64,000 bases of DNA from a virus (Duplodnaviria > Heunggongvirae > Uroviricota > Caudoviricetes), in the IMG/VR virus record IMGVR_UViG_3300012347_000377, positions 160,001-224,000 of that record; one strand, given 5' to 3'. Positions 6,850 to 54,178 of this stretch are shown here, piece after piece (positions within the stretch are counted from its first letter, which is position 1; each line of letters opens with the position of its first letter). The notes beneath the pieces were generated by a model that saw only the letters and a program-made list of their open reading frames with translations, was not told where the DNA came from and made no database searches. A program made the translations under genes and the position numbers.

Positions 6850-6904
6850 GAAATTAAAAAAAAAGAAATTATATATTTATTAGTATAATAGGAGAAAAAA
6901 TAAA

Positions 6905-9251: not shown

Positions 9252-9262
9252 TATAAATTGTA

Positions 9263-9293
9263 AGAGTGAGGAAATAATCCTCACTTTTTTTTT
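9263..9293 (+). terminator. Terminator, copy 2 of the 23-bp direct repeat
   Basis: AGAGTGAGGAAATAATCCTCACT, identical to 8454-8476, followed by a T-run. Confidence 0.85.
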
Positions 9294-9334
9294 ACCTTAT
9301 ATTTATATAAGACTTAAAATATATAGGAGAAACA

Positions 9335-9541
9335 ATGTCCAAATCTAAAGAAGTTAATGAAGGTATTATAATGGCAGCTAAGAAGTTTAGTGATGCATTT
9401 TTTGATGGGTTAAAACAAAACGCAGTAGATAGAATGCTTAAAAAAGCAGAAGATGCTAACGTTGATCCCGAAGTATTAAAAACAATGCAAAGAATCAAAA
9501 AAGATTCCGAAGAACTTAAAAAACTACTTAGTATCCGATAA
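9335..9541 (+). CDS. Small hypothetical protein upstream of tape measure
   Basis: 68-aa ORF with GGAG and ATATTTATA upstream; abuts the tape measure gene. Confidence 0.7.
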   Translation: MSKSKEVNEGIIMAAKKFSDAFFDGLKQNAVDRMLKKAEDANVDPEVLKTMQRIKKDSEELKKLLSIR

Positions 9542-9543
9542 TA

Positions 9544-11949
9544 ATGGCAAACGAAACTAACAAAGAACTCGTTGAGATATTAAAAAAACAGGCAGAGATA
9601 AAAAAACAACTTTTAGCTTATGCCGATAGTATTGATACGCGAACTGCTTCGGAATCCAAACATATAAAAGAATTACAAGCCGAATATAAAAAATTATATT
9701 CAGAAAAAGCAAAATTAACCGCTGAACAATTAAAGGGTTTTCAAGATCAAGTAGAAAGTGCATCATCTTTAACTGGTATTTACGCAAATTTGGGTAAATT
9801 AGATGAAGAAAGAATTAAGAAAAATCAAAGATATGTAAGTCTAAGTGATGAACAAAATGATGCAATTAAAAATATTGCATCTTTAAATAGAGAATTAGCA
9901 AACACAACTAGAGATGATAGTTTAGCAAAACAAGTCATCCTAAATCAAATTGATGCTGAAAAGGGTAAATTGGGTGGAATACATCATACTCAAAAATCAA
10001 TTGTAGATGATTTAGATACTCAAACAAGAGAAGCACAAAAATTAGGAAAACTTACTGAAACTCAAAAAGAATTCTTAAATGATCAATTAGCAGTATATGA
10101 TGGTATAAAGAAAACAATTGGTGGTATATTAGAAACTGCCGATATATTACTTTCTACTACTGGTGGTAAAATCGGTGCACTAATAGTTGGTGCAGGATAT
10201 GCAACTGAAGCATTAGGTAAGAATGTAAGGGAAATGGGTGGTTATTTAGGTGGAGCAACAATTTCATCTACCTTATTAGGAACTGCATTTGATTCCGCAA
10301 CCGATGTGACTAAAGGATTGGCTAAGGAAATGGGTGGATTAAATGACATCACTTTTCAGAATCAATTAAACACTAACTTAATGGCCATGAATATGGGTAT
10401 TAGTGGTGATGAAGCAGCAACTTTAACTGCAACTTTATCTCGATTAAATGGTGGTTCAATTGATACTGCACAAAACTTAGCAGAATCTACCAAAGAATTA
10501 GCAAAACAAAATGGATTAGTTCCTGCTCAAGTAATGGCCGATGTTGCAGCCTCTGCAGAAGATTTTGCATTATATGGTAAAGATGGTGGTAAGAATATGT
10601 TAGAAGCAGCAATTGCCGCTGGAAAGTTGGGGGTTAATTTAGCCTCAATGACTAAGGTCACCGAAGGTTTGTTAGATTTCGAATCATCAATTTCAAAAGA
10701 ATTAGAATTATCTGCGATGTTAGGAAAAAATATTAATCTTAACAAAGCAAGAGCATTAGCATATGATGGAAAAACAGGAGCAGCCGTTAAAGAAACCTTA
10801 TCACAAATGGGTGGTATTGAAGCATTTAACAAAATGGATGTATTCCAAAAGAAAGCAGCAGCAGAAGCAGCAGGATTGACCGTTGAGGAATTCCAAAAAA
10901 TGGCATCTAATCTTGATAAATTAAATGCAGATGGAACACTTCAATTATCTACGTTTGATAGTTGGTCACAATCACTTTCTGCATTTGCTTCCGGTCCATT
11001 GGGTTCATCATTAAAAGGTGTAGGTTCGATGGTAATCGCCGCAGGACAGTTTAACACTGGTTTAAGTGCAATGGGAATAAATTTAGGTGGGGTTATAAAG
11101 GGAACTGGTGATGTATTGAAAAATCTTTACAAAATGACCGCCGGAAAAGTGACTGATAAATTATCATCTGTATTTAGTTCAATTGGGGGTGGTAGTAGAA
11201 CTCCAACTCCAACACCTTCTGCAAATCCTGCAGGTGGGGGTGGAATGATGGATTCAATGAGTAAAGTAAATATGTCTGCAGTTTTGAAAGGTGCAGCCGC
11301 AATGGTTTTAGTAGCAGGAGCGGTTTATATTTTAGGTAAAGCATTACAAGAATATACAAAAGTAGGATTATCAGAAATAGGAATGGCAGCCGCAGGTATG
11401 TTATTATTAGGTGGTGCCGTAATGGGATTAGGATTGATAATGAGTAGTGGGGTAGGTGCAGTTGCAATTCTTGCAGGTGCAGCAGCAATGTTAGTTGTAG
11501 CAGCATCAGTTTATGTATTAGGTAAAGCATTACAAGAAATGGGTGCTGGATTTAGTGCATTAGGACAAATTCAACCCATCGTATCTGGTTTAGTTAGTAT
11601 GGTAGGTGGTATTGGATTACTTGCTGTAGCATTCACAGGTTTAGCAGGTTCTCTTGCTTTATTAGGAACTGCCGGATTACTTGCATTACCAACCTTAATG
11701 GGATTGGGAGTTGCTGGAGCAGGATTGGGAATGTTGGTAAATGCAGTTGGAGGAGAAGGTCAATCATCTGGAGTTGAAACTGAAAGTGTTTCAGAATATC
11801 AATCTACAATGTTGACCAAAATGGATGATTTGATTAATGCAGTAAAAACAAATAAAGATGTTTATTTAGATAAAGAAAAAGTTACGAACATCGTTATGAA
11901 TAAAAGTGAACGTAGAACAACCAATACATTTGGGATAGCAAACGCTTAA
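9544..11949 (+). CDS. Tape measure protein
   Basis: 801 aa, helical and Ala/Gly-rich with hydrophobic C-terminal repeats; canonical position after tube and chaperone. Confidence 0.85.
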   Translation: MANETNKELVEILKKQAEIKKQLLAYADSIDTRTASESKHIKELQAEYKKLYSEKAKLTAEQLKGFQDQVESASSLTGIYANLGKLDEERIKKNQRYVSLSDEQNDAIKNIASLNRELANTTRDDSLAKQVILNQIDAEKGKLGGIHHTQKSIVDDLDTQTREAQKLGKLTETQKEFLNDQLAVYDGIKKTIGGILETADILLSTTGGKIGALIVGAGYATEALGKNVREMGGYLGGATISSTLLGTAFDSATDVTKGLAKEMGGLNDITFQNQLNTNLMAMNMGISGDEAATLTATLSRLNGGSIDTAQNLAESTKELAKQNGLVPAQVMADVAASAEDFALYGKDGGKNMLEAAIAAGKLGVNLASMTKVTEGLLDFESSISKELELSAMLGKNINLNKARALAYDGKTGAAVKETLSQMGGIEAFNKMDVFQKKAAAEAAGLTVEEFQKMASNLDKLNADGTLQLSTFDSWSQSLSAFASGPLGSSLKGVGSMVIAAGQFNTGLSAMGINLGGVIKGTGDVLKNLYKMTAGKVTDKLSSVFSSIGGGSRTPTPTPSANPAGGGGMMDSMSKVNMSAVLKGAAAMVLVAGAVYILGKALQEYTKVGLSEIGMAAAGMLLLGGAVMGLGLIMSSGVGAVAILAGAAAMLVVAASVYVLGKALQEMGAGFSALGQIQPIVSGLVSMVGGIGLLAVAFTGLAGSLALLGTAGLLALPTLMGLGVAGAGLGMLVNAVGGEGQSSGVETESVSEYQSTMLTKMDDLINAVKTNKDVYLDKEKVTNIVMNKSERRTTNTFGIANA

Positions 11950-34100: not shown

Positions 34101-35459
34101 ATGCAAGAAGTAGATACTTTATCGAAATACGGACAATCATTCCAAAGTAAAGTTTTATCTGCTCTGATTACAGATGCTAAATTTTTAGATACAGTCGCTG
34201 AAATCACTACTCAAAAATTCTTTGAAAGTGAAGCAAATAAGTGGATTGTATCTGAAATTTTAGATTATCATTCAGAGTATAGAAAAGCACCCACATTGGA
34301 TGTATTCAAAGTTCAATTATCAAAGGTTGATAATGATATTTTGAAGAAAACGGTTGTTGATCAATTAAAACATATATGGACACAAGTTGGTAATGCAGAT
34401 TTAGAATACATCAAAAGTGAATTCGCCGATTTCTGTATTAACCAAAACTTAAAAGGAGTAATCTTACAATCAGTTGATTTATTAAAGGCAGGTTCTTATG
34501 ATAAAATCAAAGATTTGGTAGATAAGGCTTTGAAAGTTGGGGTTGAAAACAATTTGGGTCACGATTATATTTTAGATTTTGATGAACGTTCAACTGATGT
34601 AAAGAGAGATACTGTCCCAACTGACTGGGCTCCGGTTACCGAACTTATGGATGGTGGATTAGGACCGGGTGAGTTAGGAGTTGTTGTTGCACCATCGGGT
34701 GTTGGTAAGACTTGGATTTTAACTGCATTAGGTGCATCCGCTGTAAAACGTGGATTGAGTGTAGTTCATTATACAATGGAATTATCAGAACATTATGTAG
34801 GTGCAAGATACGATACTGTCTTTACTCATATTCCATCTGCGGATTTGAAAGAACGAACTGAAGAAGTTAAACATAAAATCGGTTCATTGAAAGGACAATT
34901 ACTTATTAAATATTATCCACCAAAAGGTGTAACGGTAAAAAAATTACAAGCACACATTGAGAAGATGATTTCATTGGGTAATAAACCAGATTTGATTATT
35001 GTGGATTATGCAGATTTACTTCTTTCACATTCATCCAAAAATGATTCAACTTATGCAGAACAAGGTGGTGTGTATATTGATTTAAGAGGTATGGGTGGTG
35101 AATTAGGTATTCCGGTCTGGACTGCATCACAAACCAATCGTTCGGCAATCGATAGTGAGGTTATTGAAGCAGATAAGATTGCTGATTCATATGCAAAGGT
35201 AATGAACGCAGATTTTATTATGAGTTGGAGTAGAAAATCCAAAGATAAACTGAATAACACTGCACGTTGTCACATTATGAAAAACAGATTCGGACAAGAT
35301 GGTATTACATTCCCTTGTAAGATGGATACTAATACGGGATTCATTGAAGTTTACGAAGGAAATACTCCAGATGGAATTCTAGCACAAAAAGAATCCGCAT
35401 CAGGTCAATTAGTTCAAAAACAACTACTACATAAAAAATATGTAGAGAATATGGGGTAA
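34101..35459 (+). CDS. dnaB: DnaB/gp41-like replicative helicase
   Basis: APSGVGKT, TMEL, IVDYADLL, WTASQTNR, KNRFG. Confidence 0.93.
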   Translation: MQEVDTLSKYGQSFQSKVLSALITDAKFLDTVAEITTQKFFESEANKWIVSEILDYHSEYRKAPTLDVFKVQLSKVDNDILKKTVVDQLKHIWTQVGNADLEYIKSEFADFCINQNLKGVILQSVDLLKAGSYDKIKDLVDKALKVGVENNLGHDYILDFDERSTDVKRDTVPTDWAPVTELMDGGLGPGELGVVVAPSGVGKTWILTALGASAVKRGLSVVHYTMELSEHYVGARYDTVFTHIPSADLKERTEEVKHKIGSLKGQLLIKYYPPKGVTVKKLQAHIEKMISLGNKPDLIIVDYADLLLSHSSKNDSTYAEQGGVYIDLRGMGGELGIPVWTASQTNRSAIDSEVIEADKIADSYAKVMNADFIMSWSRKSKDKLNNTARCHIMKNRFGQDGITFPCKMDTNTGFIEVYEGNTPDGILAQKESASGQLVQKQLLHKKYVENMG

Positions 35460-36511
35460 TGATAAACTATAACTCTTTTAACAAATTCGTAGAATATGAC
35501 CAATTAGATTTGGATTATTTTAAGGTCACTCAAAATGTTTTCAGTATAACGGATGTGGATTCTGCTTTAGAAATTATATTCCAATATCACCGAAAGCATG
35601 GGTTTCCTCATTATAATATTCCAAAACATAAAAGATTGGATGTATTAAGTGGATTACGAAAATTTGATGAACAAACTTTACTGAAAGATGGAAAAATAGA
35701 TCAAACAATGCATGGATTATCTCTTGCATGGACTTATTTTCCTCATTGGGTAGAGGTTGAGTGTGGTAATAACAAAATGAAACCAATTGAATATTGGGAG
35801 GATGATTCTAAGTTAAAGGAAATTATCCGTAAAACGTGGGATTGGCAAATTAAACATGGTAATGGTTCATTCACTCTAAATCGGTTAAGACAAAACTTTA
35901 AGATTTATGGTGGTAATCAATCAGTATCTAATTTTAGACCATCAGCAGCAAAATATATTTACAATACCTACGGAAATGGTGGAGTAGTTTGGGATATGAG
36001 TTGTGGATGGGGTGGAAGGTTGATAGGATTCCTCTCCAGTAATTGTAAAAGGTATATTGGAACAGAACCCTCAACTAAAACATTTAATGGATTAGAGAGG
36101 TTGAATGCGGAGTTAAACGATGGTAAAGAAGTTCAACTGCATCAGTTGGGTTCTGAAATCTTCAAACCCGATGAAAATTCATTAGATTTATGTTTTACAT
36201 CACCTCCATATTTTGATACTGAAAAATATTCAGATGAGGAAACCCAATCTTATAAAAAATATCCATCCGAATCCGAATGGACTAATGGGTTTTTAAAAGA
36301 TACGGTTTCTAATTGTTTTGTAGGATTAAAATCGGGTGGTAAGATGTTGTTAAATATCGCAAATACTCCTAAATACAAGACAATAGAATCTGAAACTATA
36401 AGAGTTTCTACTGAAGTTGGGTTCAAGCATATCGATACAATTTATCTGATACTTTCATCAGTTTCGGGTAAAGGTGAGAAATTAGAACCAATCTTTGTAT
36501 TTCAAAAATAA
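35459..36511 (+). CDS. Amino (N4C/N6A) DNA methyltransferase-like, paralogue 1
   Basis: NFRP, DMSCGWGGRL (SAM-binding), FTSPPYFDTEKY, EPIFVFQK. Confidence 0.8.
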   Translation: MINYNSFNKFVEYDQLDLDYFKVTQNVFSITDVDSALEIIFQYHRKHGFPHYNIPKHKRLDVLSGLRKFDEQTLLKDGKIDQTMHGLSLAWTYFPHWVEVECGNNKMKPIEYWEDDSKLKEIIRKTWDWQIKHGNGSFTLNRLRQNFKIYGGNQSVSNFRPSAAKYIYNTYGNGGVVWDMSCGWGGRLIGFLSSNCKRYIGTEPSTKTFNGLERLNAELNDGKEVQLHQLGSEIFKPDENSLDLCFTSPPYFDTEKYSDEETQSYKKYPSESEWTNGFLKDTVSNCFVGLKSGGKMLLNIANTPKYKTIESETIRVSTEVGFKHIDTIYLILSSVSGKGEKLEPIFVFQK

Positions 36512-40546: not shown

Positions 40547-41779
40547 ATGTATTTAGAATATTTTGATAAATTCTATGATATGGCTCCGTATCTTCATATT
40601 AATAAAGAAGAATGGAGTTATATTAAAAAAACATTTGATAGAGAAGATGTAAAAGAATCTCTAGCAAGAGTAGCAGCAACATATGAAATTCCATATGCAG
40701 ATATATCCGAAGAGGATGCAAGAACTGAATACCTAAAACTCAAAGGGTTCAGATGGAATGAATTATTCACCGAAGGAGATTGGGTGCCAAGAAAGGCATC
40801 GGAATCTCGTTATCCAATTACATTTCAAGGAAAGAACCAATACGTCAGACGTATCAACACAGGTAATGCCGCATCTAATTATTTTCAACAAGCAAATCGT
40901 TGGAGTGTAGATGGCACAGTGTCACCTGGTCCTTATAGAACTTGGAATAATCCTGATTTTATGTTTTCACTTATGGGTGGAATGTACACTTTGAAATTCG
41001 ATGAAGTGACAAAAAATACCCTAAGAACTTGTTTAAGTTTACGAAAGTATATTTGCTCACAATTCAAACCCAACGTTGCAAAAGTATTATACGATTTTGT
41101 AGAAGCAAAAAATGTATTAGATATTTCTGCAGGATGGGGAGATAGATTGTGTGGATTTTATGCATCGGAACATGGAGAACATTTTGTAGGTATTGACCCT
41201 CGAACTGAAAATCATCCAATTTATAGAGAACAAGCAAACTTTTATGAAAAACATAATGGTTTCTTCGAAACTAAAAAGAAATCAACTTTTTATGAATCAC
41301 CTGCTGAAGATTTAGATTTGGGTGAATATAAAGAATACTTTGATATTGTATTCAGTTCGCCACCATATTTCAATGTAGAGAGATATTCGTATGATGATAC
41401 TCAAAGTTGGGTTCGTTATAAAACAATTGATGATTGGAACAAAAACTTCTTACATAAAACTATTGCAAATGTTTGGCCCACTATTAAAAAGGGTGGATAT
41501 TTGGCAGTGAATATTGCCGATGTCTATGCCGCATCTAAGGGTGATGGTAAAGGACAACAAGAAATCACTAACCCTATGAACGATTTTATATCCACATTAG
41601 AGGGTGCAGAGTATCAAGGATGTTTGGGTATGGAAATGGCCAAAAGACCGGGTTCTGCAGGGGCAGGAATGATTATAGAAGGTGATGAGGAAAGATATTC
41701 CGAAGAAGAATTAAAAAAGAACGAAGAAGCAAAAGATAAAACGTTTTGTGAACCTGTATGGGTTTGGCGTAAAATGTAA
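40547..41779 (+). CDS. Amino DNA methyltransferase-like, paralogue 2
   Basis: QFKP, LDISAGWGDRL, GIDP, FSSPPYFNVERY, EPVWVWRK. Confidence 0.8.
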   Translation: MYLEYFDKFYDMAPYLHINKEEWSYIKKTFDREDVKESLARVAATYEIPYADISEEDARTEYLKLKGFRWNELFTEGDWVPRKASESRYPITFQGKNQYVRRINTGNAASNYFQQANRWSVDGTVSPGPYRTWNNPDFMFSLMGGMYTLKFDEVTKNTLRTCLSLRKYICSQFKPNVAKVLYDFVEAKNVLDISAGWGDRLCGFYASEHGEHFVGIDPRTENHPIYREQANFYEKHNGFFETKKKSTFYESPAEDLDLGEYKEYFDIVFSSPPYFNVERYSYDDTQSWVRYKTIDDWNKNFLHKTIANVWPTIKKGGYLAVNIADVYAASKGDGKGQQEITNPMNDFISTLEGAEYQGCLGMEMAKRPGSAGAGMIIEGDEERYSEEELKKNEEAKDKTFCEPVWVWRKM

Positions 41780-41783
41780 TTAA

Positions 41784-42956
41784 ATGCAGATAGAATTATC
41801 ACATTCAATCAAAAATGATAAATACACACAATATGTGTATGATACATTTGATATTCAAAACACAGATGAAACTAGAGTAATTATCCCAATGGATATATCA
41901 TCTCTAAATTCATTTGATTGGAATATTGGTGTCATTTATGGTAGTAGTGGTAGTGGTAAATCTACTATATTAAAAGAATTGGGTGGTATTAATAAAGTTC
42001 AATTTGATACTGAAAAATCCCTAATTTCAAACTTTGATTGGTTAGAACCAAACGAAGCAGGAAAAGTTTTAACATCAATGGGATTATCATCTATACCAAC
42101 GTGGTTACGTCCTTTTCACTTATTAAGTAATGGAGAACAATACCGAGCTGAATTAGCATATTTAGTTTCTTCTGCAAAAGATGGTGATACGATTTTAATA
42201 GATGAATATACATCAGTAGTAGATAGAGATGTTGCAAAAGCAATGTCATTTGCATTACAAAAATATATTCGTAGAGAAAATAAAAAGATTATTCTAGCAT
42301 CGTGTCATAACGATATAATGGAGTGGTTGATGCCTGATTGGACACTTTCACCCCAAAAAGGAGGCACACTCGAAAGAGGTGAATGGCTTCGGCAAGGGAG
42401 ACCAAACATCGAACTTCAAATTAGTAGGGTTGAACCTAAAGCTTGGGATTTCTTCAAAAAACATCATTATTTAACAGAAAATGTAAACAACACTTATATT
42501 TTTTTATTGTTTGAATGGAATGGAAACCCAGTTGCAATAAATGTAATTGGAAGACATATTGGTAGAAATAGTGTAGAAAAATCATTTAGAGAAAGTAGGA
42601 TTGTAGTTAATCCAGATTATCAAGGAATGGGTATTGGCAGTAAAGTGTCAGAGTTTTGTGCAGGAATAATAAAAAATACGAATGCTAAATATTATACTAA
42701 GACAGTAAATCCTGCATTAGGAGAATATAGAGAAAATAATCCTAATTGGAAACCAACACCTTTTAATGGTAAAATCAGAACTGATAAAAACTTACAAAAA
42801 AACGCATATACGATGTTAAAACTACGGGCATCATATTGTCATGAATATGTTGGTAATCCGATTGATGGGTATGATGAATTATTACAACCAATATCGGAAA
42901 TGAGAAACAATAAAAATATAAATTCAGAAACGTTAAATAAGTTTTTTCAATTTTAG
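41784..42956 (+). CDS. ABC-type ATPase fused to GNAT-like domain
   Basis: GSSGSGKS, LSNGEQ signature, IDEYTS, ASCH; C-terminal FKKHHYL...SRIVVNPDYQGMGIG acetyl-CoA motif. Confidence 0.85.
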   Translation: MQIELSHSIKNDKYTQYVYDTFDIQNTDETRVIIPMDISSLNSFDWNIGVIYGSSGSGKSTILKELGGINKVQFDTEKSLISNFDWLEPNEAGKVLTSMGLSSIPTWLRPFHLLSNGEQYRAELAYLVSSAKDGDTILIDEYTSVVDRDVAKAMSFALQKYIRRENKKIILASCHNDIMEWLMPDWTLSPQKGGTLERGEWLRQGRPNIELQISRVEPKAWDFFKKHHYLTENVNNTYIFLLFEWNGNPVAINVIGRHIGRNSVEKSFRESRIVVNPDYQGMGIGSKVSEFCAGIIKNTNAKYYTKTVNPALGEYRENNPNWKPTPFNGKIRTDKNLQKNAYTMLKLRASYCHEYVGNPIDGYDELLQPISEMRNNKNINSETLNKFFQF

Positions 42957-42988
42957 TTTGGAAATATCAAAAAAATATAGTATCTTTG
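42957..42988 (+). promoter_or_regulatory. Bacteroidetes-type -33/-7 promoter
   Basis: TTTG-N20-TATCTTTG. Confidence 0.8.
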
Positions 42989-43018
42989 TTATGATACTAA
43001 AACTATAAAATAAATAAT

Positions 43019-43717
43019 ATGACAGTAATAGAAGCAACATCACCCGGCGATGCATGGGTAAAAGTATCCAAACATCTTATCCAAAACGGAGTAAAAGTAG
43101 GTGATTTGACTGAAGAATTGAATGTGATGACTGAAATCACCGAATTTCAATCTGATGATTGGTTTGATCCACATTTTAGAGAAATTATGGGTGATGATAG
43201 AATTGATTACGCAAAGACTGTAACATTCTTAGAACCACAGCCACACGTTTCAGATAGTCCATTCTTTGCAGCCGAAGAAGGATTGGAATATAAATTCATT
43301 AAAGATAAATGGAGTGATTCTTATTGGGGTAGAATGGTTGCATGGCAAGGAACATTCAATCAGGTGGAAAATGTAATCAAAATCTTAAAGACTGGTAAAG
43401 CAGTTAAGAGATGTGAATTGATTATCTTTGACCCGAGTAGAGATGCTAGAAATCCATACTCACAACCTTGTATGTTAGCAATCGATATTAAACCTCGTAA
43501 TGGTAAAATCTATCTAACATCAATCATTCGTTCAAACAGAGTATCTAAATCAGGTTATGCAGATTACACTGCATTGGTTGAGATGGGTAAATTCTTAGCG
43601 AAAGAAAGTGATATGGAATTAGGAAAAGTATCTGTTTTGGCTTGTTCTTGTCATATCGGTAAAATGAATGATGAAACCAAAAAGACTCATAGGTTATTAG
43701 AAGTATTAAATAGATAA
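43019..43717 (+). CDS. Thymidylate synthase / dCMP hydroxymethylase-fold enzyme (atypical)
   Basis: SYWGRM, NQVENVI..L, FDP..D, QPC (catalytic Cys), RSN...D, SCHI. Confidence 0.8.
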   Translation: MTVIEATSPGDAWVKVSKHLIQNGVKVGDLTEELNVMTEITEFQSDDWFDPHFREIMGDDRIDYAKTVTFLEPQPHVSDSPFFAAEEGLEYKFIKDKWSDSYWGRMVAWQGTFNQVENVIKILKTGKAVKRCELIIFDPSRDARNPYSQPCMLAIDIKPRNGKIYLTSIIRSNRVSKSGYADYTALVEMGKFLAKESDMELGKVSVLACSCHIGKMNDETKKTHRLLEVLNR

Positions 43718-43718
43718 T

Positions 43719-45224
43719 ATGTGTGGAATTGTAGCAACAATAGGTTATAGTAAAGAAGATGTAAATGATATGCTTGAAGCAATCGAACATCGTGGTAGAG
43801 ATAATCGCGGTATTAGAGAATTTAAGTATGGTGATAAACAAATAGTTTTAGGTCACAATCGTTTATCAATTAATGACACATCACCATTAGGTAATCAACC
43901 AATGGAATTTGATGGTGTTCAATTAGTTGTAAATGGTGAGATATGGAATTACCCACAACTGCGTAAAGAATATGAAGAAAGAGGATATGAATTCAAATCA
44001 AATTCAGATTCGGAAATTATTTTATTCTTATATAAAGAAGGTGAATTAAAAAGATTAGATGGTATGTTTTCATTTATCATCTATGATAATAATAAATTAA
44101 TTTTATCCAGAGATTGGGTTGGTAAATTACCATTATACATTTACAATACAAATAAGTATATTGTAGCAAGTGAGTTGAAATCAATTACTACACAACATAA
44201 AACATCTGATATAAAATTCGTTCCAAAAAATTCATTAGTTGAAATTGATTTGGATACTGATAAAATTAAAATAAACGAAAATTATTATTTCCAATTTTCA
44301 TCAGAAACTACGCAAGTTTCATCACATGAAGAAGTTGCAGAAACTACTTTCAAATTATTAGAAAGAGCAGTAGATAAAAGATTATTATCTGATGTTCCAA
44401 TTGCAACATCATTAAGTGGTGGAATTGATTCTGCAGTAATTACTTATCTATTAAAACAACGAATTCCTAACTTAAAAGCATATACCATTGCATTTGATGA
44501 AACTTCAAAGGATTTACAAAAGGCAAGAGTTTGTGCAAAATATTTAGGAGTGGAGTTGGTTGAGGTATTCGTTCCTAAAAATGATGAAATCATTAAACAA
44601 CGTTTTTTAGATTCAATTAAAGTTATTGAATATCCATCAACCGTTCAAATGGAAGTTGGTATTTTACAATCATTCATAGCAGAACAAATGGCTAGTGATG
44701 GGATTAAAGTAGCATTTAGTGGTGAAGGTAGTGATGAATCATATGGTTCATATGGAACTTTCCGTATGTTCAGTAAGAAACCTGATTGGAGTGATGTTCG
44801 TAAAAAATTATTTGAAAAACAATACTATGGAAACTTACTAAGAGGTAATACTATCTTTATGAATTATGGAACAATTGAATTAAGATGTCCATTCTTTGAT
44901 ACTGATTTCTTAAATTACACAACTAATCTAACTGATGAATTTTTATGTAAAGGTGGTCAATGGAAAAGACCTCTTGCAGATGGATTTAGAGGTAAATTAC
45001 CAGATGAAATATTAGACCAAGAAAAAAGAGCATTCCAAAAAGGAACTAACTTTAAACAATACATAGAAGATATTATCTTAAATGATCCTAACATCAATTT
45101 CAAAAATAGAAAAAAGATGATTAATGTTATTGGTGATAATTTTGAAAAAATACATGGATTCTCTCATAGAAAGATGAAAGGAGAATTAACATCAAACGCA
45201 GGAGGGATATACCAATGGATATAA
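43719..45224 (+). CDS. Asparagine synthetase B-like glutamine amidotransferase
   Basis: MCGI, HRG.D, HNRLSI, NGEIWN, SDSE, RD..G..PLY, LSGGIDS, SGEGSDE..G.Y, ELRCPF. Confidence 0.9.
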   Translation: MCGIVATIGYSKEDVNDMLEAIEHRGRDNRGIREFKYGDKQIVLGHNRLSINDTSPLGNQPMEFDGVQLVVNGEIWNYPQLRKEYEERGYEFKSNSDSEIILFLYKEGELKRLDGMFSFIIYDNNKLILSRDWVGKLPLYIYNTNKYIVASELKSITTQHKTSDIKFVPKNSLVEIDLDTDKIKINENYYFQFSSETTQVSSHEEVAETTFKLLERAVDKRLLSDVPIATSLSGGIDSAVITYLLKQRIPNLKAYTIAFDETSKDLQKARVCAKYLGVELVEVFVPKNDEIIKQRFLDSIKVIEYPSTVQMEVGILQSFIAEQMASDGIKVAFSGEGSDESYGSYGTFRMFSKKPDWSDVRKKLFEKQYYGNLLRGNTIFMNYGTIELRCPFFDTDFLNYTTNLTDEFLCKGGQWKRPLADGFRGKLPDEILDQEKRAFQKGTNFKQYIEDIILNDPNINFKNRKKMINVIGDNFEKIHGFSHRKMKGELTSNAGGIYQWI

Positions 45225-46054
45225 GATTGAAAGGATTGAACGAAGATACTCCATTAGAACTTTACCATATTAAAGGTAGAGAGGTGTGGGTAAAAAGAGA
45301 TGACCTAATGGGTGATGGAACACAATTACCGCCATGGGGTAAACTAGCAGCATTATATGAGTTGGTTAAAAAATATGTGGATAAATCAAAACCTCTAACC
45401 CATCTTTCAGTAGATGGTAGTTGGACAGGTTGGGCACTTGCAGCAATATGTGAAAGTTTGGATATAGAATTTTATGTATCATATCCAGATTCAAAAAAGA
45501 TTTCGCAAGAATATTTGGGAATGATTAAAGAAATGTTTCCAAAAGTTCATATGAATCCAATCAGACCTAATATGATGCAGATTATGTATAATTCACTTCG
45601 AGGTCAAGCTAAAGAAAACGGATGGCAAATGCTACCTTATGCTTTTGACCACGATTTTTATAAAGATTATCTTGCGGAAAGAATTCAACCATTTACTCAT
45701 TTTGATAATTTAGTTGTATCATCTGGCAGTGGAGTGACACTTGCAGGATTAGCAAGAGGTTATTATAGAGAAGAACTTAAAGAGTTTTTTCCAAAGGTAA
45801 CTAGAAAAATTTGGACAACATGTGTATCATCGGAAAGTTCAATTAATAAAACATTAAAGAAAAGTGGAATTCCAATTCCTCTTAAAGTGAGAAAATCGGA
45901 ATATCTTTTTGAAGACCGAATTGATGGATATTCAGCTCCATTTCCATGTAATCAATTTTGGGATATAAAGCAATGGAAATGGTTAGAAGAAAATATAGAC
46001 CAAATTGAAGGAACTATACTTTTTTGGAATGTTGGTGGAATTTATAAATTCTAA
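45215..46054 (+). CDS. PLP-dependent fold-type II enzyme (D-cysteine desulfhydrase/ACC deaminase-like)
   Basis: TPL...VWVKRDDL...WGK (candidate PLP Lys), VVSSGSGVTLAGL phosphate loop, LFWNVG. Confidence 0.75.
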   Translation: MDIRLKGLNEDTPLELYHIKGREVWVKRDDLMGDGTQLPPWGKLAALYELVKKYVDKSKPLTHLSVDGSWTGWALAAICESLDIEFYVSYPDSKKISQEYLGMIKEMFPKVHMNPIRPNMMQIMYNSLRGQAKENGWQMLPYAFDHDFYKDYLAERIQPFTHFDNLVVSSGSGVTLAGLARGYYREELKEFFPKVTRKIWTTCVSSESSINKTLKKSGIPIPLKVRKSEYLFEDRIDGYSAPFPCNQFWDIKQWKWLEENIDQIEGTILFWNVGGIYKF

Positions 46055-46062
46055 TCAAAACA

Positions 46063-46094
46063 TTTGGAAATACGGAAATAATTTCGTATCTTTG
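46063..46094 (+). promoter_or_regulatory. Bacteroidetes-type -33/-7 promoter
   Basis: TTTG-N20-TATCTTTG. Confidence 0.8.
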
Positions 46095-46117
46095 TAAAAC
46101 AATAAAAATAAATAATT

Positions 46118-48628
46118 TTGTATAAAAACGTCTACTTTCAACGAGAGAAAAATACTGTCCACTTATGGGATGACCATTTAGGATATAGAACTTTTCCATA
46201 TACTCGTTATGCATATGAACCTGCTGAGAATGGAACATTCCGTTCTATCTATGGTGATAAACTTTCTAAAATATACAAATTCAAAGGAGATGACCCTGGT
46301 TTATTCGAATCAGATGTACCCGAAACTACAAGAGTATTGGTAGATACATACACCGAATCAGATTTACCATCCGAAGGAATCGTAACGATGACATTCGATA
46401 TTGAGGTAGAAATGGAATCGGGTCTACCAAACGTAGAAGAAGCTAAGAATGAATTAACTGCAATCGGTCTAAATGATAATATCACTAATCAATATTGGGT
46501 ATTGATTATGGATAAGAAAGGTAAGATGGTAGAAAGAACTACCGATAAAGCAATTATCTTACCATTCAAAGATGAGAGAGATTTGTGTATGAAATTCCTA
46601 GAGTTGTATGAAGGAATACAACCGGATATTTTAACTGGTTGGAATATTGATAATTTCGATATTCCGTATCTATTTAATCGTATTAAACGTATCTTAGGTG
46701 AACAACACGCAAAGAGATTATCACCTATTGGTCAGGCATTCTATTCACCATACCGAAATCGTTGGTTCTTCGCAGGTGTAAGTTGTTTAGATTATTTAGA
46801 ATTATATAAGAAATTTAACTACAATGAATTACCTAACTATCGATTAGATACAATCGGAACGATTGAATTAGGTAAAGGTAAGATTGAGTATCAAGGTTCA
46901 TTGGATGATTTATTTAATGAAGATATTGAAAAGTTCATTGAGTATAACTTAGTCGATGTTGAAATTGTTGTAGAGTTAGATAAGAAATTACAATTCATTG
47001 ATTTATGTAGAGGTATTTGTCATGCAGGGCACGTTCCATATGAGGATTTCGTATATTCCTCAAAATATTTGGAGGGTGCATTGTTATGTTTCCTTAAACG
47101 TAAAGGATTGGTTGCACCAAATAAACCAGCAGATAGAAAAGAGAAATTACAGGCTCTTAAAGATGCAGGACAAGAAAAGTTTATTGGTGCATATGTGAAA
47201 GACCCGATTGTGGGTAAATATGATTGGGTATATGACTTGGACTTAACATCACTATATCCATCAATCATTATGACCTTAAACATTTCACCCGAAACAAAAG
47301 TGAATAAGGTTGAGAATTGGGATGTTCAAACTTTTATGAAAAAAGAAGTTGATTATTACCAAATGGGTGAAGATAGAATCTCCAGAGATAATTTGGATAA
47401 GTATATCAGAGAAGGTGATTTAACAATATCATCCAACGGCGTATTATATCGTAAAGACAAAATGGGATGTATTCCCGAGATATTAGATATTTGGTTTAAT
47501 GAAAGGGTTGAATTTAGAAAGCTTGAAAAGAAATACGGTCAAGAGGGTGATAAAGAAAAATATGCCTTTTACGGCAAAAGACAGTTGGTTCAAAAAATTC
47601 TACTTAACTCTCTTTATGGTGTTCTTGGTCTTCCTGCCTTTCGGTTTTACGATGTTGATAATGCGGAGGCAGTTACTACTACGGGTCAAACGGTTATTAA
47701 AAACACGGCCAATATGGGGAACATCAAATACAACAAAGAATTAGGAACGAAAGATGTGGATTCAAATATCTACATTGATACGGATTCTGTATTCTTCTCA
47801 GCAGTTCCATTACTAGACCATAGACATAAAGATTGGAAATCAATGCCTGATAGTGAAGTTGCGGTATTAGTGGATGGTATTGCGGGTGAAGTTCAAGATT
47901 ATCTAAATAAGTTTTATGATATTTTATGTGATAAGTTCTTTAATGTTCAGAATCACCGATTGGAAATTAAAAAAGAATACGTTGCACGAGCAGGTATTTG
48001 GATTGCAAAGAAGAGATACGCACAATGGATTATTTCCAACAATGGTATTGCAACTGATAAATTAGATGTTAAGGGATTAGACGTAAAACGTTCATCATTC
48101 CCTAAAGCATTTCAGGAGTGCATGGGAACTGTCTTAATTGATATTCTACGAAGTAAACCCGAAGAAGAAATCACAGCTTTTATTCTTGCTTTTAAGAAGA
48201 GTATGATGGAAAGACCAGTTTCGGAGATTGCAAAGAACTCTGCGGTAAAACACTTATCAAAGTATCTACCAAAGAAAAGACAATTGTTTCAATTAGAAAA
48301 GGGAGTTCCCGCACACGTTAAAGCAGCAATCCTATATAATGATTGTTTGAAACATTTCAACGCACCATTCAAATATTCACCGATGAAAGATGGTGATAAA
48401 GTAAAATGGGTATATCTTAAAAATAACCCATTGGGAATTGATGGATTGGCATTTACAGGTTATGAAGACCCGAAGGAGATTGTTGATTTTATTTCAACTT
48501 ATGTTGACCACAATCGAATCTTCGAGGCGGAATTAAAAGGTAAACTACAAGATTTTTATAATGCATTGAGTTGGGGTGAAGTTATGAGTGAACAGAAAAC
48601 TGCTGAGAAATTCTTTAGTTTCGGTTAG
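46118..48628 (+). CDS. Family B DNA polymerase (T4 gp43-like), TTG start
   Basis: FDIE, GWN...FD, YN..D exonuclease motifs; DLTSLYPS, K...NS.YG, YIDTDS, KKRY. Confidence 0.96.
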   Translation: MYKNVYFQREKNTVHLWDDHLGYRTFPYTRYAYEPAENGTFRSIYGDKLSKIYKFKGDDPGLFESDVPETTRVLVDTYTESDLPSEGIVTMTFDIEVEMESGLPNVEEAKNELTAIGLNDNITNQYWVLIMDKKGKMVERTTDKAIILPFKDERDLCMKFLELYEGIQPDILTGWNIDNFDIPYLFNRIKRILGEQHAKRLSPIGQAFYSPYRNRWFFAGVSCLDYLELYKKFNYNELPNYRLDTIGTIELGKGKIEYQGSLDDLFNEDIEKFIEYNLVDVEIVVELDKKLQFIDLCRGICHAGHVPYEDFVYSSKYLEGALLCFLKRKGLVAPNKPADRKEKLQALKDAGQEKFIGAYVKDPIVGKYDWVYDLDLTSLYPSIIMTLNISPETKVNKVENWDVQTFMKKEVDYYQMGEDRISRDNLDKYIREGDLTISSNGVLYRKDKMGCIPEILDIWFNERVEFRKLEKKYGQEGDKEKYAFYGKRQLVQKILLNSLYGVLGLPAFRFYDVDNAEAVTTTGQTVIKNTANMGNIKYNKELGTKDVDSNIYIDTDSVFFSAVPLLDHRHKDWKSMPDSEVAVLVDGIAGEVQDYLNKFYDILCDKFFNVQNHRLEIKKEYVARAGIWIAKKRYAQWIISNNGIATDKLDVKGLDVKRSSFPKAFQECMGTVLIDILRSKPEEEITAFILAFKKSMMERPVSEIAKNSAVKHLSKYLPKKRQLFQLEKGVPAHVKAAILYNDCLKHFNAPFKYSPMKDGDKVKWVYLKNNPLGIDGLAFTGYEDPKEIVDFISTYVDHNRIFEAELKGKLQDFYNALSWGEVMSEQKTAEKFFSFG

Positions 48629-48634
48629 AATGTA

Positions 48635-48676
48635 TGACAATGTGTCAGTATAATGAAAGATGGTATTAAAATTGAA
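48635..48676 (+). promoter_or_regulatory. Candidate sigma54-like promoter with upstream palindrome, ahead of groEL
   Basis: TGACA-ATG-TGTCA (48635-48647) and TGGTATTAAAATTGAA (48661-48676), compared with the consensus TGGCAC-N5-TTGCW. Confidence 0.45.
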
Positions 48677-48684
48677 TATAATAG

Positions 48685-50343
<1,659 letters not shown>

Positions 50344-50362
50344 AAAAATAAATGGGATTATG

Positions 50363-50394
50363 TTTGGTAAATCCAAAAAATATTCGTATATTTG
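50363..50394 (+). promoter_or_regulatory. Bacteroidetes-type -33/-7 promoter
   Basis: TTTG-N20-TATATTTG. Confidence 0.8.
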
Positions 50395-50423
50395 TATAAA
50401 TAAATTTAAAATCAATAAATAAA

Positions 50424-51137
50424 ATGGAAAAACAAAAATTAAATCGTTTCGTTAGTAAATACAACCTTGCGGGGTTAGTAGAGTCAGTAAAGTGGGAATC
50501 AAAGAATGGTTCATTAAACACATCATTCATTTCAGATGATAAATCTGTATTGGGTAGTGTATCTATGAAAGCATTTGATAATTCCGATTCATCATTTGGT
50601 GTATATGATACAACCAAATTAACAAAAATGTTGTCAGTATTGGGTGATGCAGTAGATTTTTCAATCTCCGATATTGAAGGTAAAGCAGTATCATTAAAAT
50701 TCAAAGATGGTTCAACGTCTGTAAATTATATGTTGGCTGATTTATCAGTTATTCCAAACGTACCGGATTTGAAACAATTACCAAACTTTGATGTTGAAAT
50801 CAAATTGGATTCTAATTTCATTTCAAAGTTCATCCGTGCAAAAGGTGCATTGGCAGATGAGAACAACTTTACATTCACATCTAAGAATGGTAAATCTCAA
50901 ATTATCTTAGGTCATTCTAATATCAACACAAACCGAATTACAATTGATGTTGATGCAACGGTTTCTGCAGATGTAAATGCAATTTCATTCTCTGCAACCT
51001 ACTTAAAAGAAATCTTAGTAGCAAACAAAGAGGCATCTGATGCAACTCTTAACATTTCAACACAAGGTTTAGCTCATATCCACTTTGAGGTAGACGAATA
51101 TACATCTGATTACTACTTAGTGGAGATTCAATCATAA
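50424..51137 (+). CDS. Sliding clamp (T4 gp45-like)
   Basis: 237 aa; FGVYD...L, Y..AD, IS.QGL....F......YYL; located near polB and the clamp loader. Confidence 0.8.
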   Translation: MEKQKLNRFVSKYNLAGLVESVKWESKNGSLNTSFISDDKSVLGSVSMKAFDNSDSSFGVYDTTKLTKMLSVLGDAVDFSISDIEGKAVSLKFKDGSTSVNYMLADLSVIPNVPDLKQLPNFDVEIKLDSNFISKFIRAKGALADENNFTFTSKNGKSQIILGHSNINTNRITIDVDATVSADVNAISFSATYLKEILVANKEASDATLNISTQGLAHIHFEVDEYTSDYYLVEIQS

Positions 51138-51138
51138 T

Positions 51139-52773
51139 ATGACTAAACACTTTTACGAACGAAGCAAGTTTTCCGAATTCAAATCTAATACAACTTATCA
51201 TCAGTTATTATCTATGACTGATGATGAGTTTACAGATTGGGCAAGATTATTACGCAAAGAAGTTACTGAACAATGGGATACTACTGGCACTCCACCTGTA
51301 ATTGGTAGAGATGAAGGTGGTATTATTGATTCATTTAAGAAACTGAAAGGTAATGATTGTAATTTTTGGGAAAAGGATTTAAGTGGTGATGATGAATCAT
51401 TAGGAATCATCCAAAACTTTAATAAAGATGCATCGGTTGTAAATCAGTTTTTTCCTACTATGTTGAAAACCAAAATATCAATTGGTAAATCAGCAGATGG
51501 TGGATTATCTATTTATGACCATTTTGCAGACCCTAATTTAGAAGAACAATTTGTTAAAATTATGAGAAGAGCAGTGAAGAGGGATTCAATGTATTCCTGG
51601 TCACGTTCTATTGTAAACAAAAAAGATGAAAATGAATTTTGGGATGGTGAAAATGGTGTAGAATTTATACAAAAAGTTTCAGAGGGTAAAGTATTTACCG
51701 GTAAGTGGTCTGATAATGATATTGTGATTGCTAAAGTTAAAGAAGATACTTTAGATAATTACGGAACGATTAACGATGAATATATTGGATTCGGTAATTT
51801 ATATCTAACTGCAGACCAATTAAGAGAATGTGTTGATAAAGGATACTTAACACCAACACAAATGTCAAACGTAAAATCTATTGATGATGATTACACAATG
51901 GCAGATGGTAAAGTTAAGAAGTTCTTTTATCTAATTCGTTGGTATGATAAGAGTGATGGTATTTTCCCAAAGATATTACAGGTATTCCGTTTAAGTTGTG
52001 GTCAACCCGCAGTAAACTTTCCTGCATTAACTGCTAAGTGGATTTACGAAACTTATACATCACACATCGAACAAGATGAACCTCTTCATATTTACGATTC
52101 ATCAAGTGGATGGGGTGGGAGAATATTAGGTGCAATGAGTTCTCGTAAGAAAACTCACTACATTGGGACAGACCCTAACCCTGATAATTTTATTCCAGAA
52201 TTGGGTATATCTCGTTATGAATATGTTGCTAAGTTTTACAATGATAAATGTGTGGATGATTTTTCAGATTCATTCGCTAAGTTTTTCGATGTGACAAAAC
52301 AAGGTAATACATATGAGTTGTTTCAAGATGGTTCAGAGTTAATCCAACACAATCCTAAATTCCAAAAGTATAAAGGTAAATTAGATTTATCTTTTACATC
52401 ACCTCCATATTTCAATAGAGAACAATATTCTCAAGATGAGAAACAATCATTCAAAGCATATGGTGAATATGAAGATTGGAGAGAAAACTTTTTACGTCCA
52501 ACATTAACAACTATTTTTGAATATACAAAGAATGATAGATATATCCTTTGGAATATTGCAGATATTAAAATTGGTGCAAATACCTACTATCCATTAGAAC
52601 AAGATTCAAGAGATATTTTGTTAGAATTAGGGTGTGAGTATAAGGGTAAGTTGAAGATGTTGATGACACGAATGGTGGGATTAGACCCAACCAAATCAGG
52701 TATTAAAAACGCAGTTAAACATAACGGAAAGGCATACAAATTCGAACCGATATTTGTATTCCATAAAAAATAA
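51139..52773 (+). CDS. Amino DNA methyltransferase-like, paralogue 3
   Basis: VNFP...AK, YDSSSGWGGRILG, GTDPN, FTSPPYFNREQY, EPIFVFHK. Confidence 0.8.
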   Translation: MTKHFYERSKFSEFKSNTTYHQLLSMTDDEFTDWARLLRKEVTEQWDTTGTPPVIGRDEGGIIDSFKKLKGNDCNFWEKDLSGDDESLGIIQNFNKDASVVNQFFPTMLKTKISIGKSADGGLSIYDHFADPNLEEQFVKIMRRAVKRDSMYSWSRSIVNKKDENEFWDGENGVEFIQKVSEGKVFTGKWSDNDIVIAKVKEDTLDNYGTINDEYIGFGNLYLTADQLRECVDKGYLTPTQMSNVKSIDDDYTMADGKVKKFFYLIRWYDKSDGIFPKILQVFRLSCGQPAVNFPALTAKWIYETYTSHIEQDEPLHIYDSSSGWGGRILGAMSSRKKTHYIGTDPNPDNFIPELGISRYEYVAKFYNDKCVDDFSDSFAKFFDVTKQGNTYELFQDGSELIQHNPKFQKYKGKLDLSFTSPPYFNREQYSQDEKQSFKAYGEYEDWRENFLRPTLTTIFEYTKNDRYILWNIADIKIGANTYYPLEQDSRDILLELGCEYKGKLKMLMTRMVGLDPTKSGIKNAVKHNGKAYKFEPIFVFHKK

Positions 52774-52778: not shown

Positions 52779-53726
52779 ATGGCATTTTTTGAAGATAAAA
52801 ATACGGAAGAGAAAGATAATAGTTTATGGGTAGAATCATATCGTCCATCGAAGTTGGAAGACTACGTTGGTAATGAACATCTAAAATCAAAAGTTCAAAC
52901 TTATATTGAAAGTGGTGATGTTCCCCATTTACTTTTGTATGGTAAAGCAGGAACTGGTAAAACTACTCTTGCTAAGTTGATTGTGAATTCAATCAATTGT
53001 GACCATATGATTATCAATGCATCAGATGAAAATAACGTTGATACTGTCCGAAACAAAGTAAAGAATTTTGCATCTACAATTGGATTTAAGAATATAAAAG
53101 TAATCATCTTAGATGAGTTCGATTATATGACACCGAATGCACAAGCAATTCTTCGTAACTTAATGGAAACTTTTTCTAAACATTGCCGTTTTATTTTAAC
53201 GTGTAATTATGTTGAAAAGGTAATCGAACCAATTCAATCTCGTTGTCAATCGTTTCAAATTGTTCCACCAACTAAGAAAGATGTTGCAATCCAAATTAGT
53301 AAGATTCTTAAATCAGAGGAAATTAGATTTGAACCAAAAGATTTAGTTCCAATTATTGATGCCGGATATCCTGATATTCGTAAAATCATCAATACTTGCC
53401 AATTAAACTCACATAAGGGTGCATTGCAGGTAGATACTAAAAACTTATTGGAAAACGATTATAAGATGAAAATTTTAGATTTACTAAAAACATCAGATGA
53501 TAAGAGAAATCGTTATATGAAATTAAGACAGGCTTTGATTGATAGTAGAGTAACTGATTTTACAGATTTATTTACTTTGTTATATGATAAGGTAGATGAG
53601 TATGCACCATCAAATACTGCAAATGTTGTTATTGCACTTTCACAAGGACAAACTACACATTTTCAATCAATCGATAAAGAGATTGCAATGGCTGCAACTT
53701 TAATTGAAATAAACAATTTATTATAA
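52779..53726 (+). CDS. Clamp loader large subunit (gp44/RFC-like)
   Basis: WVESYRP, GKAGTGKT, INASDE, LDEFD, LTCNY, SRC. Confidence 0.93.
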   Translation: MAFFEDKNTEEKDNSLWVESYRPSKLEDYVGNEHLKSKVQTYIESGDVPHLLLYGKAGTGKTTLAKLIVNSINCDHMIINASDENNVDTVRNKVKNFASTIGFKNIKVIILDEFDYMTPNAQAILRNLMETFSKHCRFILTCNYVEKVIEPIQSRCQSFQIVPPTKKDVAIQISKILKSEEIRFEPKDLVPIIDAGYPDIRKIINTCQLNSHKGALQVDTKNLLENDYKMKILDLLKTSDDKRNRYMKLRQALIDSRVTDFTDLFTLLYDKVDEYAPSNTANVVIALSQGQTTHFQSIDKEIAMAATLIEINNLL

Positions 53727-54178
53727 TGGCTGGAATAACATTATTCGACCACATAAAAGCAATCACACAAACTCAAGACAAAAAGTATTGGGATAAGTTA
53801 GATGATGCAGATAAAAAAACCTGGTCAAATTATATGGTATTCCGATTCTTGTCAATGAACCCTGATTGGGTGCCAATGGTTGCACAACTGCAACCTTACT
53901 TACAAGAAGTTCCACCTAAGGCGTGTTATTTAGCATTGATTGATTTAATACCAAAGACTAGAGCTTTTTTAAAATATATGAAAGCAAAAGGTGAGGATAC
54001 ATATGAGAAATGGTTAATTGAATTAGTCACTAAACATTATAATACATCTACATTGGAAAGTGAAGATTATTTAAAAATTTTATATTCAACAAAATCAGGT
54101 AGAGAACGTATAAAGGAGTTATGCACTATCTATGGAGTTGAACCAAAACAAATTACAAAATTAAAATTAAATTTATAA
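53726..54178 (+). CDS. Probable clamp loader small subunit (gp62-like)
   Basis: LFDHIKAI...YMVFRFLSM; coupled to the gp44-like gene. Confidence 0.65.
   Translation: MAGITLFDHIKAITQTQDKKYWDKLDDADKKTWSNYMVFRFLSMNPDWVPMVAQLQPYLQEVPPKACYLALIDLIPKTRAFLKYMKAKGEDTYEKWLIELVTKHYNTSTLESEDYLKILYSTKSGRERIKELCTIYGVEPKQITKLKLNL

Follow-up and report, generated by a model that had tools for sequence, protein, structure and literature searches.

This work concerns the C-terminal tail of an acetyltransferase fusion protein encoded in a 64,000-nucleotide stretch of viral DNA (hereafter, the window), which corresponds to bases 160001-224000 of a single 288,673-bp contig of a T4-like phage (G+C content, 31%), IMG/VR record IMGVR_UViG_3300012347_000377. 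In the region studied, T4-type replisome genes are interleaved with putative DNA-modification genes. One of the latter encodes an ABC ATPase fused to a GNAT acetyltransferase (ABC-GNAT), and its last residues resemble those of the gp43-type family-B DNA polymerase (PolB) encoded in the same region. A first-pass annotation of the window had proposed that a shared FF motif docks PolB and several putative modification enzymes on a sliding clamp, and all the peptides it quoted were found in the sequence. The genes and features on which the argument turns are listed below, with positions in the window.

41784-42956, + strand: ABC-ATPase/GNAT fusion (ABC-GNAT), 390 residues; phrog_11143, E = 1.5e-126
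42855-42929, + strand: extension or linker of ABC-GNAT past the GNAT core, residues 358-382, NPIDGYDELLQPISEMRNNKNINSE
42930-42953, + strand: predicted clamp-binding tail of ABC-GNAT, TLNKFFQF, residues 383-390; the protein ends ..SETLNKFFQF
46118-48628, + strand: gp43-type family-B DNA polymerase (PolB), 836 residues
48602-48625, + strand: C-terminal tail of PolB, AEKFFSFG, predicted clamp-binding peptide; PolB ends ..QKTAEKFFSFG
50424-51137, + strand: gp45-like sliding clamp, 237 residues; phrog_223
52779-53726, + strand: gp44-like AAA+ clamp-loader subunit; Pfam AAA and DNA_pol3_delta2 matches
53726-54178, + strand: gp62-like clamp-loader subunit; Phage_clamp_A, 1.3e-5

The ABC-GNAT and polymerase tails

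PolB is recognized by Pfam DNA_pol_B (3.9e-38) and by an exonuclease domain (3.2e-19), and according to tblastn it is 51% identical to the PolB of Microcystis phage Mel-JY01 and 32-34% identical to the gp43 of cyanomyoviruses. The assignment of a gp45-like clamp to position 50424, already made in the first-pass annotation, was borne out, since this open reading frame (ORF) matches phrog_223, "DNA polymerase processivity factor" (E = 6.1e-15), and adjoins the gp44-like and gp62-like genes. Furthermore, the clamp gene stays beside PolB and the clamp loader across all the relatives examined.

The ABC-GNAT protein matches phrog_11143 over residues 1-359, with the ABC ATPase at the N-terminal side and the GNAT domain at the C-terminal side. 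Pfam places Acetyltransf_1 at 21.8 bits (cut-off, 20.7) and ABC_tran at 23.4 bits, just under its cut-off of 25, and Acetyltransf_7 is also among the matches. In the alignment of homologues, the Walker A, signature, Walker B and H-loop residues are invariant, as are the QGxGxG residues for acetyl-CoA. A "GNAT coupled with an ABC ATPase" was predicted by Iyer et al. 2013 to acylate a DNA base in phages, as related in the relevant part of PMC7824862, where Tenacibaculum phage pT24 is named as a carrier of the family. The pT24 homologue (8995-10167) has an in-frame stop at the joint between the ABC and GNAT parts and is annotated as two genes. The ABC-GNAT gene lies between those of methyltransferase (MTase) 2 and a thymidylate-synthase-like (TS-like) protein only in the window and two relatives. 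A 100%-complete relative of 287 kb, with a PolB identity of 89%, is devoid of ABC-GNAT, and there MTase 2 abuts the TS-like gene. Thus, ABC-GNAT behaves as an accessory one-gene cassette and not as an obligate step of the neighbouring pathway.

An ending of the form F[FW]x[FLV], followed by at most one further residue, is found in 2 of the 419 ORFs, those of PolB and ABC-GNAT. We scored tails with BLOSUM62, a measure set beforehand, using the polymerase tail as the query against all ORF tails, and the ABC-GNAT tail ranked first among 418 against the PolB tail of the window. The PolB and ABC-GNAT tails are encoded by different codons. In 18 IMG/VR relatives of PolB, down to 54% identity, FFxF is kept at the extreme C-terminus in the variants ..AEKFF[SNTA]F, ..ASQFFGF, ..ASQFFAF and ..ASQFFSF, while the linker before it changes and different codons are used. 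The gp43 of T4 and RB69 attaches to gp45 by its C-terminal tail, which sits in a hydrophobic pocket of the clamp (PMC3012046, PDB 1b8h), and a C-terminal LDFL motif is used by gp55 and gp33 (PMC9690074). From this homology, we infer that the PolB tail of the window is a clamp-binding peptide. No homologue of gp55 or gp33 was identified in the genome.

The FF of ABC-GNAT is invariant in 58 of 58 members of its clade while the linker varies, and its codons vary synonymously. The 52 sequences ending in FFx[FL] share the consensus V-[DN]-x-E-x-hydrophobic-N-[QK]-F-F-[ST]-[FL]. The synonymous codon variation, together with the differing codons of PolB and ABC-GNAT, indicates selection on the peptide rather than a recent copy of the DNA. 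Conservation of FF, which the first-pass annotation had named as a check, was thus confirmed for the C-terminal FF of the ABC-GNAT clade, and it did not extend to the PLP and TS-like enzymes, whose internal FFs are lost in relatives (see below). Further proteins of the genome with FF close to the C-terminus, either unmatched in PHROG or unrelated as enzymes, were not counted as clamp clients: a 358-residue protein ending ..EINNFFN, a 79-residue protein ending ..WNAFFY and a 192-residue protein ending ..HFFGEY that looked nucleosidase-like by eye only.

Tail exchange within the family and co-variation with the polymerase

For a census of tails, the nearest 120 of 2,506 ABC-GNAT homologues were sorted by their last residues, with the following result.

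[KQ]FFx[FL] or FFG (the clade of the window): 58 of 120
Q-x-x-L-F: 29 of 120
x-x-x-L-F: 19 of 120
Related endings (QLKLEI, QTTLDL): 3 of 120
..DLDLVxxFW[DE][VI]x (group C): 5 of 120
No motif, or truncated: 6 of 120

In bacterial proteins, the C-terminal motif that binds the beta clamp has the consensus QL(S/D)LF (PMC9690074). The ABC-GNAT of the window ends in KFFQF, so it has no QxxLF beta-clamp motif of its own. The segment that precedes the tail (GYEELLLPINEMR) is common to the LF-tailed relatives and to the ABC-GNAT of the window, and only the last 8-15 residues are exchanged. Another subclade with LF tails, represented by Nonlabens phage P12024S, carries a different extension that ends in QNQ[IT]xLF throughout. 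The complete 35.7-kb genome of P12024S encodes a primase and a helicase and no polymerase or clamp. Similarly, three 100%-complete IMG/VR phages of 29-36 kb with LF-tailed homologues were matched neither by the clamp profile nor by Pfam DNA_pol_B, in a search for which a group C contig served as the positive control and was matched.

A maximum-likelihood tree of 140 proteins was built with the last 35 residues removed and rooted on tail-less members. In this tree, the FF clade, whose 65 sequences (support, 0.986) include the window and group C, lies deeply nested within the LF-tailed clades. The homologues of Aeromonas phage PX29 and Vibrio phage vB_VmeM-32 (VmeM-32) form separate branches close to the base. 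The simplest reading of this topology would be a single change of tail, from the beta-clamp to the phage-clamp type, on the entry of the gene into the T4-like lineage, plus two more adaptations that arose independently. In group C contigs, ABC-GNAT (..NFWDVE) lies directly upstream of PolB (..SQFFSF), the clamp, gp44 and gp62.

The tail-less homologues have neighbours of their own. A formyltransferase gene follows the homologue in phiE255, Komp_PAO1_1 and a Porphyromonas phage, and in Gordonia phage Jace ParB precedes it and an aspartate decarboxylase comes after it. These genes may supply an acyl donor, and formyltransferase or aspartate decarboxylase and ParB neighbours are read as acyl-donor supply for base modification in the part of PMC7824862 that treats them.

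The ABC-GNAT tail also follows the polymerase of its own phage. In PX29, gp43 ends in ..KKTSLTDLFGDW (..SLTDLFGDW) and the ABC-GNAT homologue in ..KSGLDFMFGI; in VmeM-32, the corresponding endings are ..KRIKLNAVLDI and ..YQHIKDILDI. Cognate tail pairs score 22, 14 and 17 in the window, PX29 and VmeM-32, respectively, versus 10 or less for all non-cognate pairs. When ranked against the polymerase tail, the ABC-GNAT tail is 1st of 418 in the window, 15th or better of 350 in PX29 and 3rd of 262 in VmeM-32 (Fisher p = 1.3e-4).

Scans of both whole genomes for the pattern of the polymerase tail brought up, as an unplanned outcome, a further protein in each. In PX29, L..[LMF]FG plus one or two residues ends only three ORFs: gp43, ABC-GNAT and an annotated "Mom-like DNA modification protein" (CL89_gp046, NC_023688.1 36066-36950), which ends in ..KGLTDLFGDF and, with a tail score of 37, is by far the best match to the gp43 tail. 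In VmeM-32, [LIVM]LDI ends only gp43, ABC-GNAT and a "modification methylase," a DNA methylase (VmeM32_00256, KU160494.1 190935-191666) that ends in ..YDSVLDI. Since the Mom-like protein and the methylase carry the gp43-type tail of their own phage, other DNA-modifying enzymes appear to follow the same rule as ABC-GNAT. The PX29 ORFs caught by a loose LDFL-like pattern proved to be gp26 and an endonuclease and were dropped.

Two observations on these phages are recorded here in their own right. The gp30 DNA ligase of PX29 (NC_023688.1 163133-164620) ends in ..KTIKKFFG, which is hydrophobic and unlike the tail of PX29 gp43; T4 ligase is known to contact the clamp by another route (PMC6212786). 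The gp43 of VmeM-32 occupies no fewer than three separate open frames, of 230, 306 and 250 residues (KU160494.1, approximately 71100-75450); its gene is either split or broken up by an intron or intein.

Neighbouring enzymes and their internal FF sites

The remaining genes around PolB and the clamp, together with the internal FF sites proposed for some of them, are as follows.

40547-41779: MTase 2, SPPYF amino-methyltransferase type, phrog_12517
41255-41266: internal FF of MTase 2, NGFF
43019-43717: TS-like protein, a weak assignment
43259-43267: internal FF of the TS-like enzyme, PFF
43719-45224: AsnB-type amidotransferase
45215-46054: PLP-fold enzyme (PLP enzyme), overlapping the AsnB-like ORF
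45779-45790: internal FF of the PLP enzyme, KEFF
48709-50343: GroEL
51139-52773: MTase 3
52276-52290: internal FF of MTase 3, AKFFD

The first-pass annotation located these internal sites correctly, and each of its ranges spans a part only of the peptide it quoted. It also took SFNKFV to be the beginning of MTase 1 (35459-36511); the peptide is present at residues 6-11 and not at the terminus, as the protein starts with MINYNSFNKFVEY, and it contains no FF.

In the whole proteome (approximately 90,600 residues), 197 FF dipeptides were observed versus 196.4 expected, and 125 of 399 ORFs contain at least one. The proteome has the looser motif [KQN]F[FW]x[FLV] in 18 places, the KFFDV of MTase 3 being among the fits. 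Within this phage lineage, neither MTase 2 nor MTase 3 varies in its FF. Among 120 homologues of MTase 2, the homologues retrieved being close relatives only (65-93% identity), the site reads FF in 65, MF in 12, WF in 8 and LF in 7, and the paralogue MTase 1 has no FF at the equivalent site. The pattern is that of a packed hydrophobic position. The FF of the PLP enzyme becomes FW and then LL or IV, and that of the TS-like enzyme becomes FI, in relatives whose clamp and polymerase tail are still the same. A profile search of MTase 3 against solved structures gave no match, and its AlphaFold2 model is poor (mean pLDDT, 48.5), so the burial of its FF is not judgeable from it.

Judged from these sequence comparisons, we take the FFs inside the neighbouring enzymes for ordinary hydrophobic residues, not clamp-binding sites. 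Consequently, of the earlier proposal that an FF peptide serves as a shared clamp-docking element, the part concerning ABC-GNAT is well supported, by conservation and by co-variation with the polymerase tail, and the part concerning the internal sites is not. Docking of MTase 2, MTase 3, the PLP enzyme or the TS-like enzyme through an internal FF, or of MTase 1 through its start, finds no support, given the chance frequency of FF and sites that are variable or lost. The same annotation had rated the two C-terminal cases above the internal ones, and indeed only the C-terminal tails exceed chance.

Several other features of the region deserve mention. The window holds three paralogous SPPYF-type methyltransferase-like genes (phrog_12517, function unknown), at 35459-36511, 40547-41779 and 51139-52773, and the MTase 3 gene separates the clamp gene from those of the clamp loader in every relative examined. 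In one relative, the TS-like and AsnB-like proteins form a single fused frame of 723 residues (5099-7270 of its locus), which argues that both proteins act together. The AsnB-like amidotransferase ends in ..NAGGIYQWI (45195-45221) and the PLP enzyme in ..NVGGIYKF (46025-46051); such GG[IL]Y[KQ][WF] tails are kept on both enzymes in relatives, as a second shared C-terminal tag on adjacent enzymes. A phage GroEL gene sits between PolB and the clamp in the window and two relatives, and other relatives have a GroEL copy, of approximately 60% identity, several kilobases farther downstream.

Probable clamp docking, its alternatives and its meaning

We consider it likely that ABC-GNAT docks by its C-terminal tail on the phage clamp and thereby modifies newly replicated DNA. 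The observations behind this reading are the tail and its invariance, the co-variation in three lineages and the beta motif that takes its place in relatives from clamp-less phages. In the mechanism we propose, a flexible extension of approximately 30 residues after the GNAT core would end in a clamp-binding peptide (..hydrophobic-N-K-F-F-x-F) that copies the tail of the phage's own gp43-type polymerase (..A-E-K-F-F-S-F-G). The gp44/gp62-like loader would leave clamps on fresh phage DNA, and the ABC-GNAT tail would dock on a free subunit of the trimeric clamp. The ABC ATPase would then act on DNA, and the GNAT domain would modify the fresh duplex behind the fork. The physical contact between tail and clamp, the use of DNA as substrate and the modification chemistry are the parts of this scheme that we infer.

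Three copies of the clamp were folded with residues 341-390 of ABC-GNAT, giving an ipSAE of 0.44 (runs of 0.46, 0.43 and 0.44), versus 0.00 for the best control. The runs showed at least 45% contact agreement and a partner pLDDT of at least 42. Of 80 solved complexes, 58 pass the mark applied, as do 2 of 110 mismatched pairs, and scores of 0.60 or less came from only 7 of the 80 solved complexes plus both passing mismatches; these calibration counts are approximate because custom alignments and a multi-copy set-up were used. It is important to consider that a similar complex has been solved (RB69 clamp plus peptide, 1b8h), and the pass may reflect memory. In the AlphaFold2 model of ABC-GNAT, itself weak overall, residues 371-390 have a pLDDT below 50, which suggests that the tail is disordered.

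Several points weigh against clamp docking by ABC-GNAT. The clamp fold with its tail, a check envisaged in the first-pass annotation, was carried out with a verdict of weak support, and the AlphaFold2 model of the protein is poor (mean pLDDT, 54.9), as is that of MTase 3. The identity of the gp45-like clamp rests solely on the PHROG profile and on synteny, a profile search against solved structures having returned only an insignificant sliding-clamp match (E = 0.86). The rank of the PX29 tail is modest by itself. Distant members of the family have neither extension nor tail (Mu-like phiE255, Komp_PAO1_1, Porphyromonas phages, Gordonia phage Jace and Lactococcus phage P335), and the pT24 homologue ends in ..KNREKLQK, with no clamp-type tail. 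A clamp is thus not required for the family to function, and the tail is an addition in one part of it. Finally, the label "DNA-modifying" goes back to a published prediction, that of Iyer et al. 2013 as cited in the relevant part of PMC7824862. The clamp-type tails, as far as sequence comparison goes, support an action of ABC-GNAT on DNA independently of that prediction.

Among the alternatives, we regard as unlikely the one in which the tail does bind the clamp, yet the enzyme acetylates a fork protein of the replisome or nucleoid, or competes with other clamp clients, instead of modifying bases. GNATs mostly acylate proteins or small molecules, phrog_11143 is without a known substrate, and ABC-GNAT, as an accessory cassette, works independently of the neighbouring pathway, all of which would suit it. 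However, the same-tailed Mom-like protein of PX29 and DNA methylase of VmeM-32 both act on DNA, and the tail-less homologues have neighbours of the acyl-donor type in the sense of the relevant part of PMC7824862. A much broader scheme, in which MTase 2, MTase 3, the PLP enzyme and the TS-like enzyme would also dock through their internal FFs and form a clamp-bound modification factory, seems very improbable to us. It can invoke the invariance of the MTase 2 and MTase 3 FFs in the lineage, the position of the MTase 3 gene between the clamp and clamp-loader genes and the fit of KFFDV to the loose motif. Nevertheless, FF is as frequent as chance predicts and the loose motif recurs 18 times in the proteome. 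The MTase 2 site varies, MTase 1 has no FF and the PLP and TS-like FFs are lost, and no internal motif is terminal, unlike every supported case.

It is extremely unlikely, in our judgement, that the likeness of the tails is a coincidence of AT-rich composition or a signal that serves something other than the clamp, for example turnover or a different partner in the replisome. In its favour, the motifs are short, F and K abound in a genome of 31% G+C and the patterns were picked after the data had been seen. These concerns are met by the ranks from the pre-set BLOSUM score (Fisher p = 1.3e-4), by the invariance of FF over 58 sequences with synonymous codon changes and by the alternative tail of the relatives, which, in phages that encode no clamp, is the exact canonical beta-clamp pentapeptide. 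Additionally, the gp43 tail is a clamp-binding element in T4 and RB69 (PMC3012046).

Docking of ABC-GNAT on the clamp would have precedents, as clamp tethering by short peptides is already well known for T4 gp43, gp55 and gp33, bacterial clients and Dnmt1. The gp45-binding peptides of T4 and RB69 are likewise short, hydrophobic and at the extreme C-terminus after a flexible linker, with several proteins of one phage sharing a tail and a trimeric gp45-type clamp and gp44/62-type loader encoded nearby (PMC3012046, PMC9690074). They read (S/T)LDFL(F/Y), whereas the window tail is hydrophobic-x-[KQ]-F-F-x-F, and their owners are a polymerase or transcription factors, whereas the client in the window is a predicted DNA-modifying ATPase-acetyltransferase. 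Clients that use the beta-clamp pentapeptide include Pol II, Pol IV, UmuC, MutS, Hda, insertion sequence (IS) transposases and MuC of phage Mu. The nearest ABC-GNAT outgroup clades resemble them in ending in QxxLF, in phages that depend on the host replisome, but the clade of the window has swapped this motif for the phage-clamp type. The predicted ABC-GNAT base-acylation system is of the same family, with the same domain order and intact ABC and acetyl-CoA motifs; the clamp-binding tail is confined to a subclade, and the relevant part of PMC7824862 makes no mention of a tail.

In eukaryotes, Dnmt1 is recruited to newly replicated DNA through a PIP-type motif that couples it to PCNA (PMC9690074). 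It is alike in being a DNA-modifying enzyme with a short clamp-binding peptide that ends in two aromatics; it differs in that the enzymes and clamp lineages are unrelated and the window motif is at the extreme C-terminus. Compared with the PIP box Qxx[I/L/M]xx[F/Y][F/Y], SETLNKFF of ABC-GNAT has the L and the FF and no Q, and QKTAEKFF of PolB has the Q and the FF with A at position 4; relatives do not retain the leading Q. As regards phage DNA modification, the sole published claim of coupling to a clamp known to us concerns the T4 alpha-glucosyltransferase, which reportedly was found to interact with gp45 in 2004. A 2025 preprint, using C-terminally His-tagged enzymes, failed to reproduce this interaction either in vitro or in vivo (bioRxiv 10.64898/2025.12.06.692756). 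The parallel with ABC-GNAT lies in a phage DNA-modification enzyme working from the clamp, and the difference is that no polymerase-like tail takes part in the case of the glucosyltransferase. We searched the literature for clamp-binding tails on phage acetyltransferases, methyltransferases and Mom proteins and found none reported. The present results contribute clamp-type tails in the ABC-GNAT family and a tail swap resolved on its tree.

Phage DNA modifications shield against restriction and CRISPR, and how a phage modifies each new genome copy before host nucleases reach it is poorly understood. The switch between host-type and phage-type tails within one enzyme family offers sequence-level evidence for replication-coupled modification. 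The ABC-GNAT gene tree records the tail swap, and the PX29 Mom-like protein and VmeM-32 methylase extend the rule beyond one family. We lean, by a little, towards a more general proposal, that phage DNA-modifying enzymes as a class would be hooked to the clamp by interchangeable C-terminal tails, each re-tuned to whichever clamp copies the genome (host beta, through QxxLF, or a phage gp45-type clamp), so that protective base modification would be written co-replicatively, directly behind the fork. The idea is directly testable in the cultured phages PX29, vB_VmeM-32 and Nonlabens phage P12024S. Tails that copy the polymerase provide a simple rule to find clamp clients and new modification enzymes in uncultured phages, and, if the class-wide proposal is true, a clamp-type tail would be a sequence-only marker for unknown DNA-modifying enzymes.

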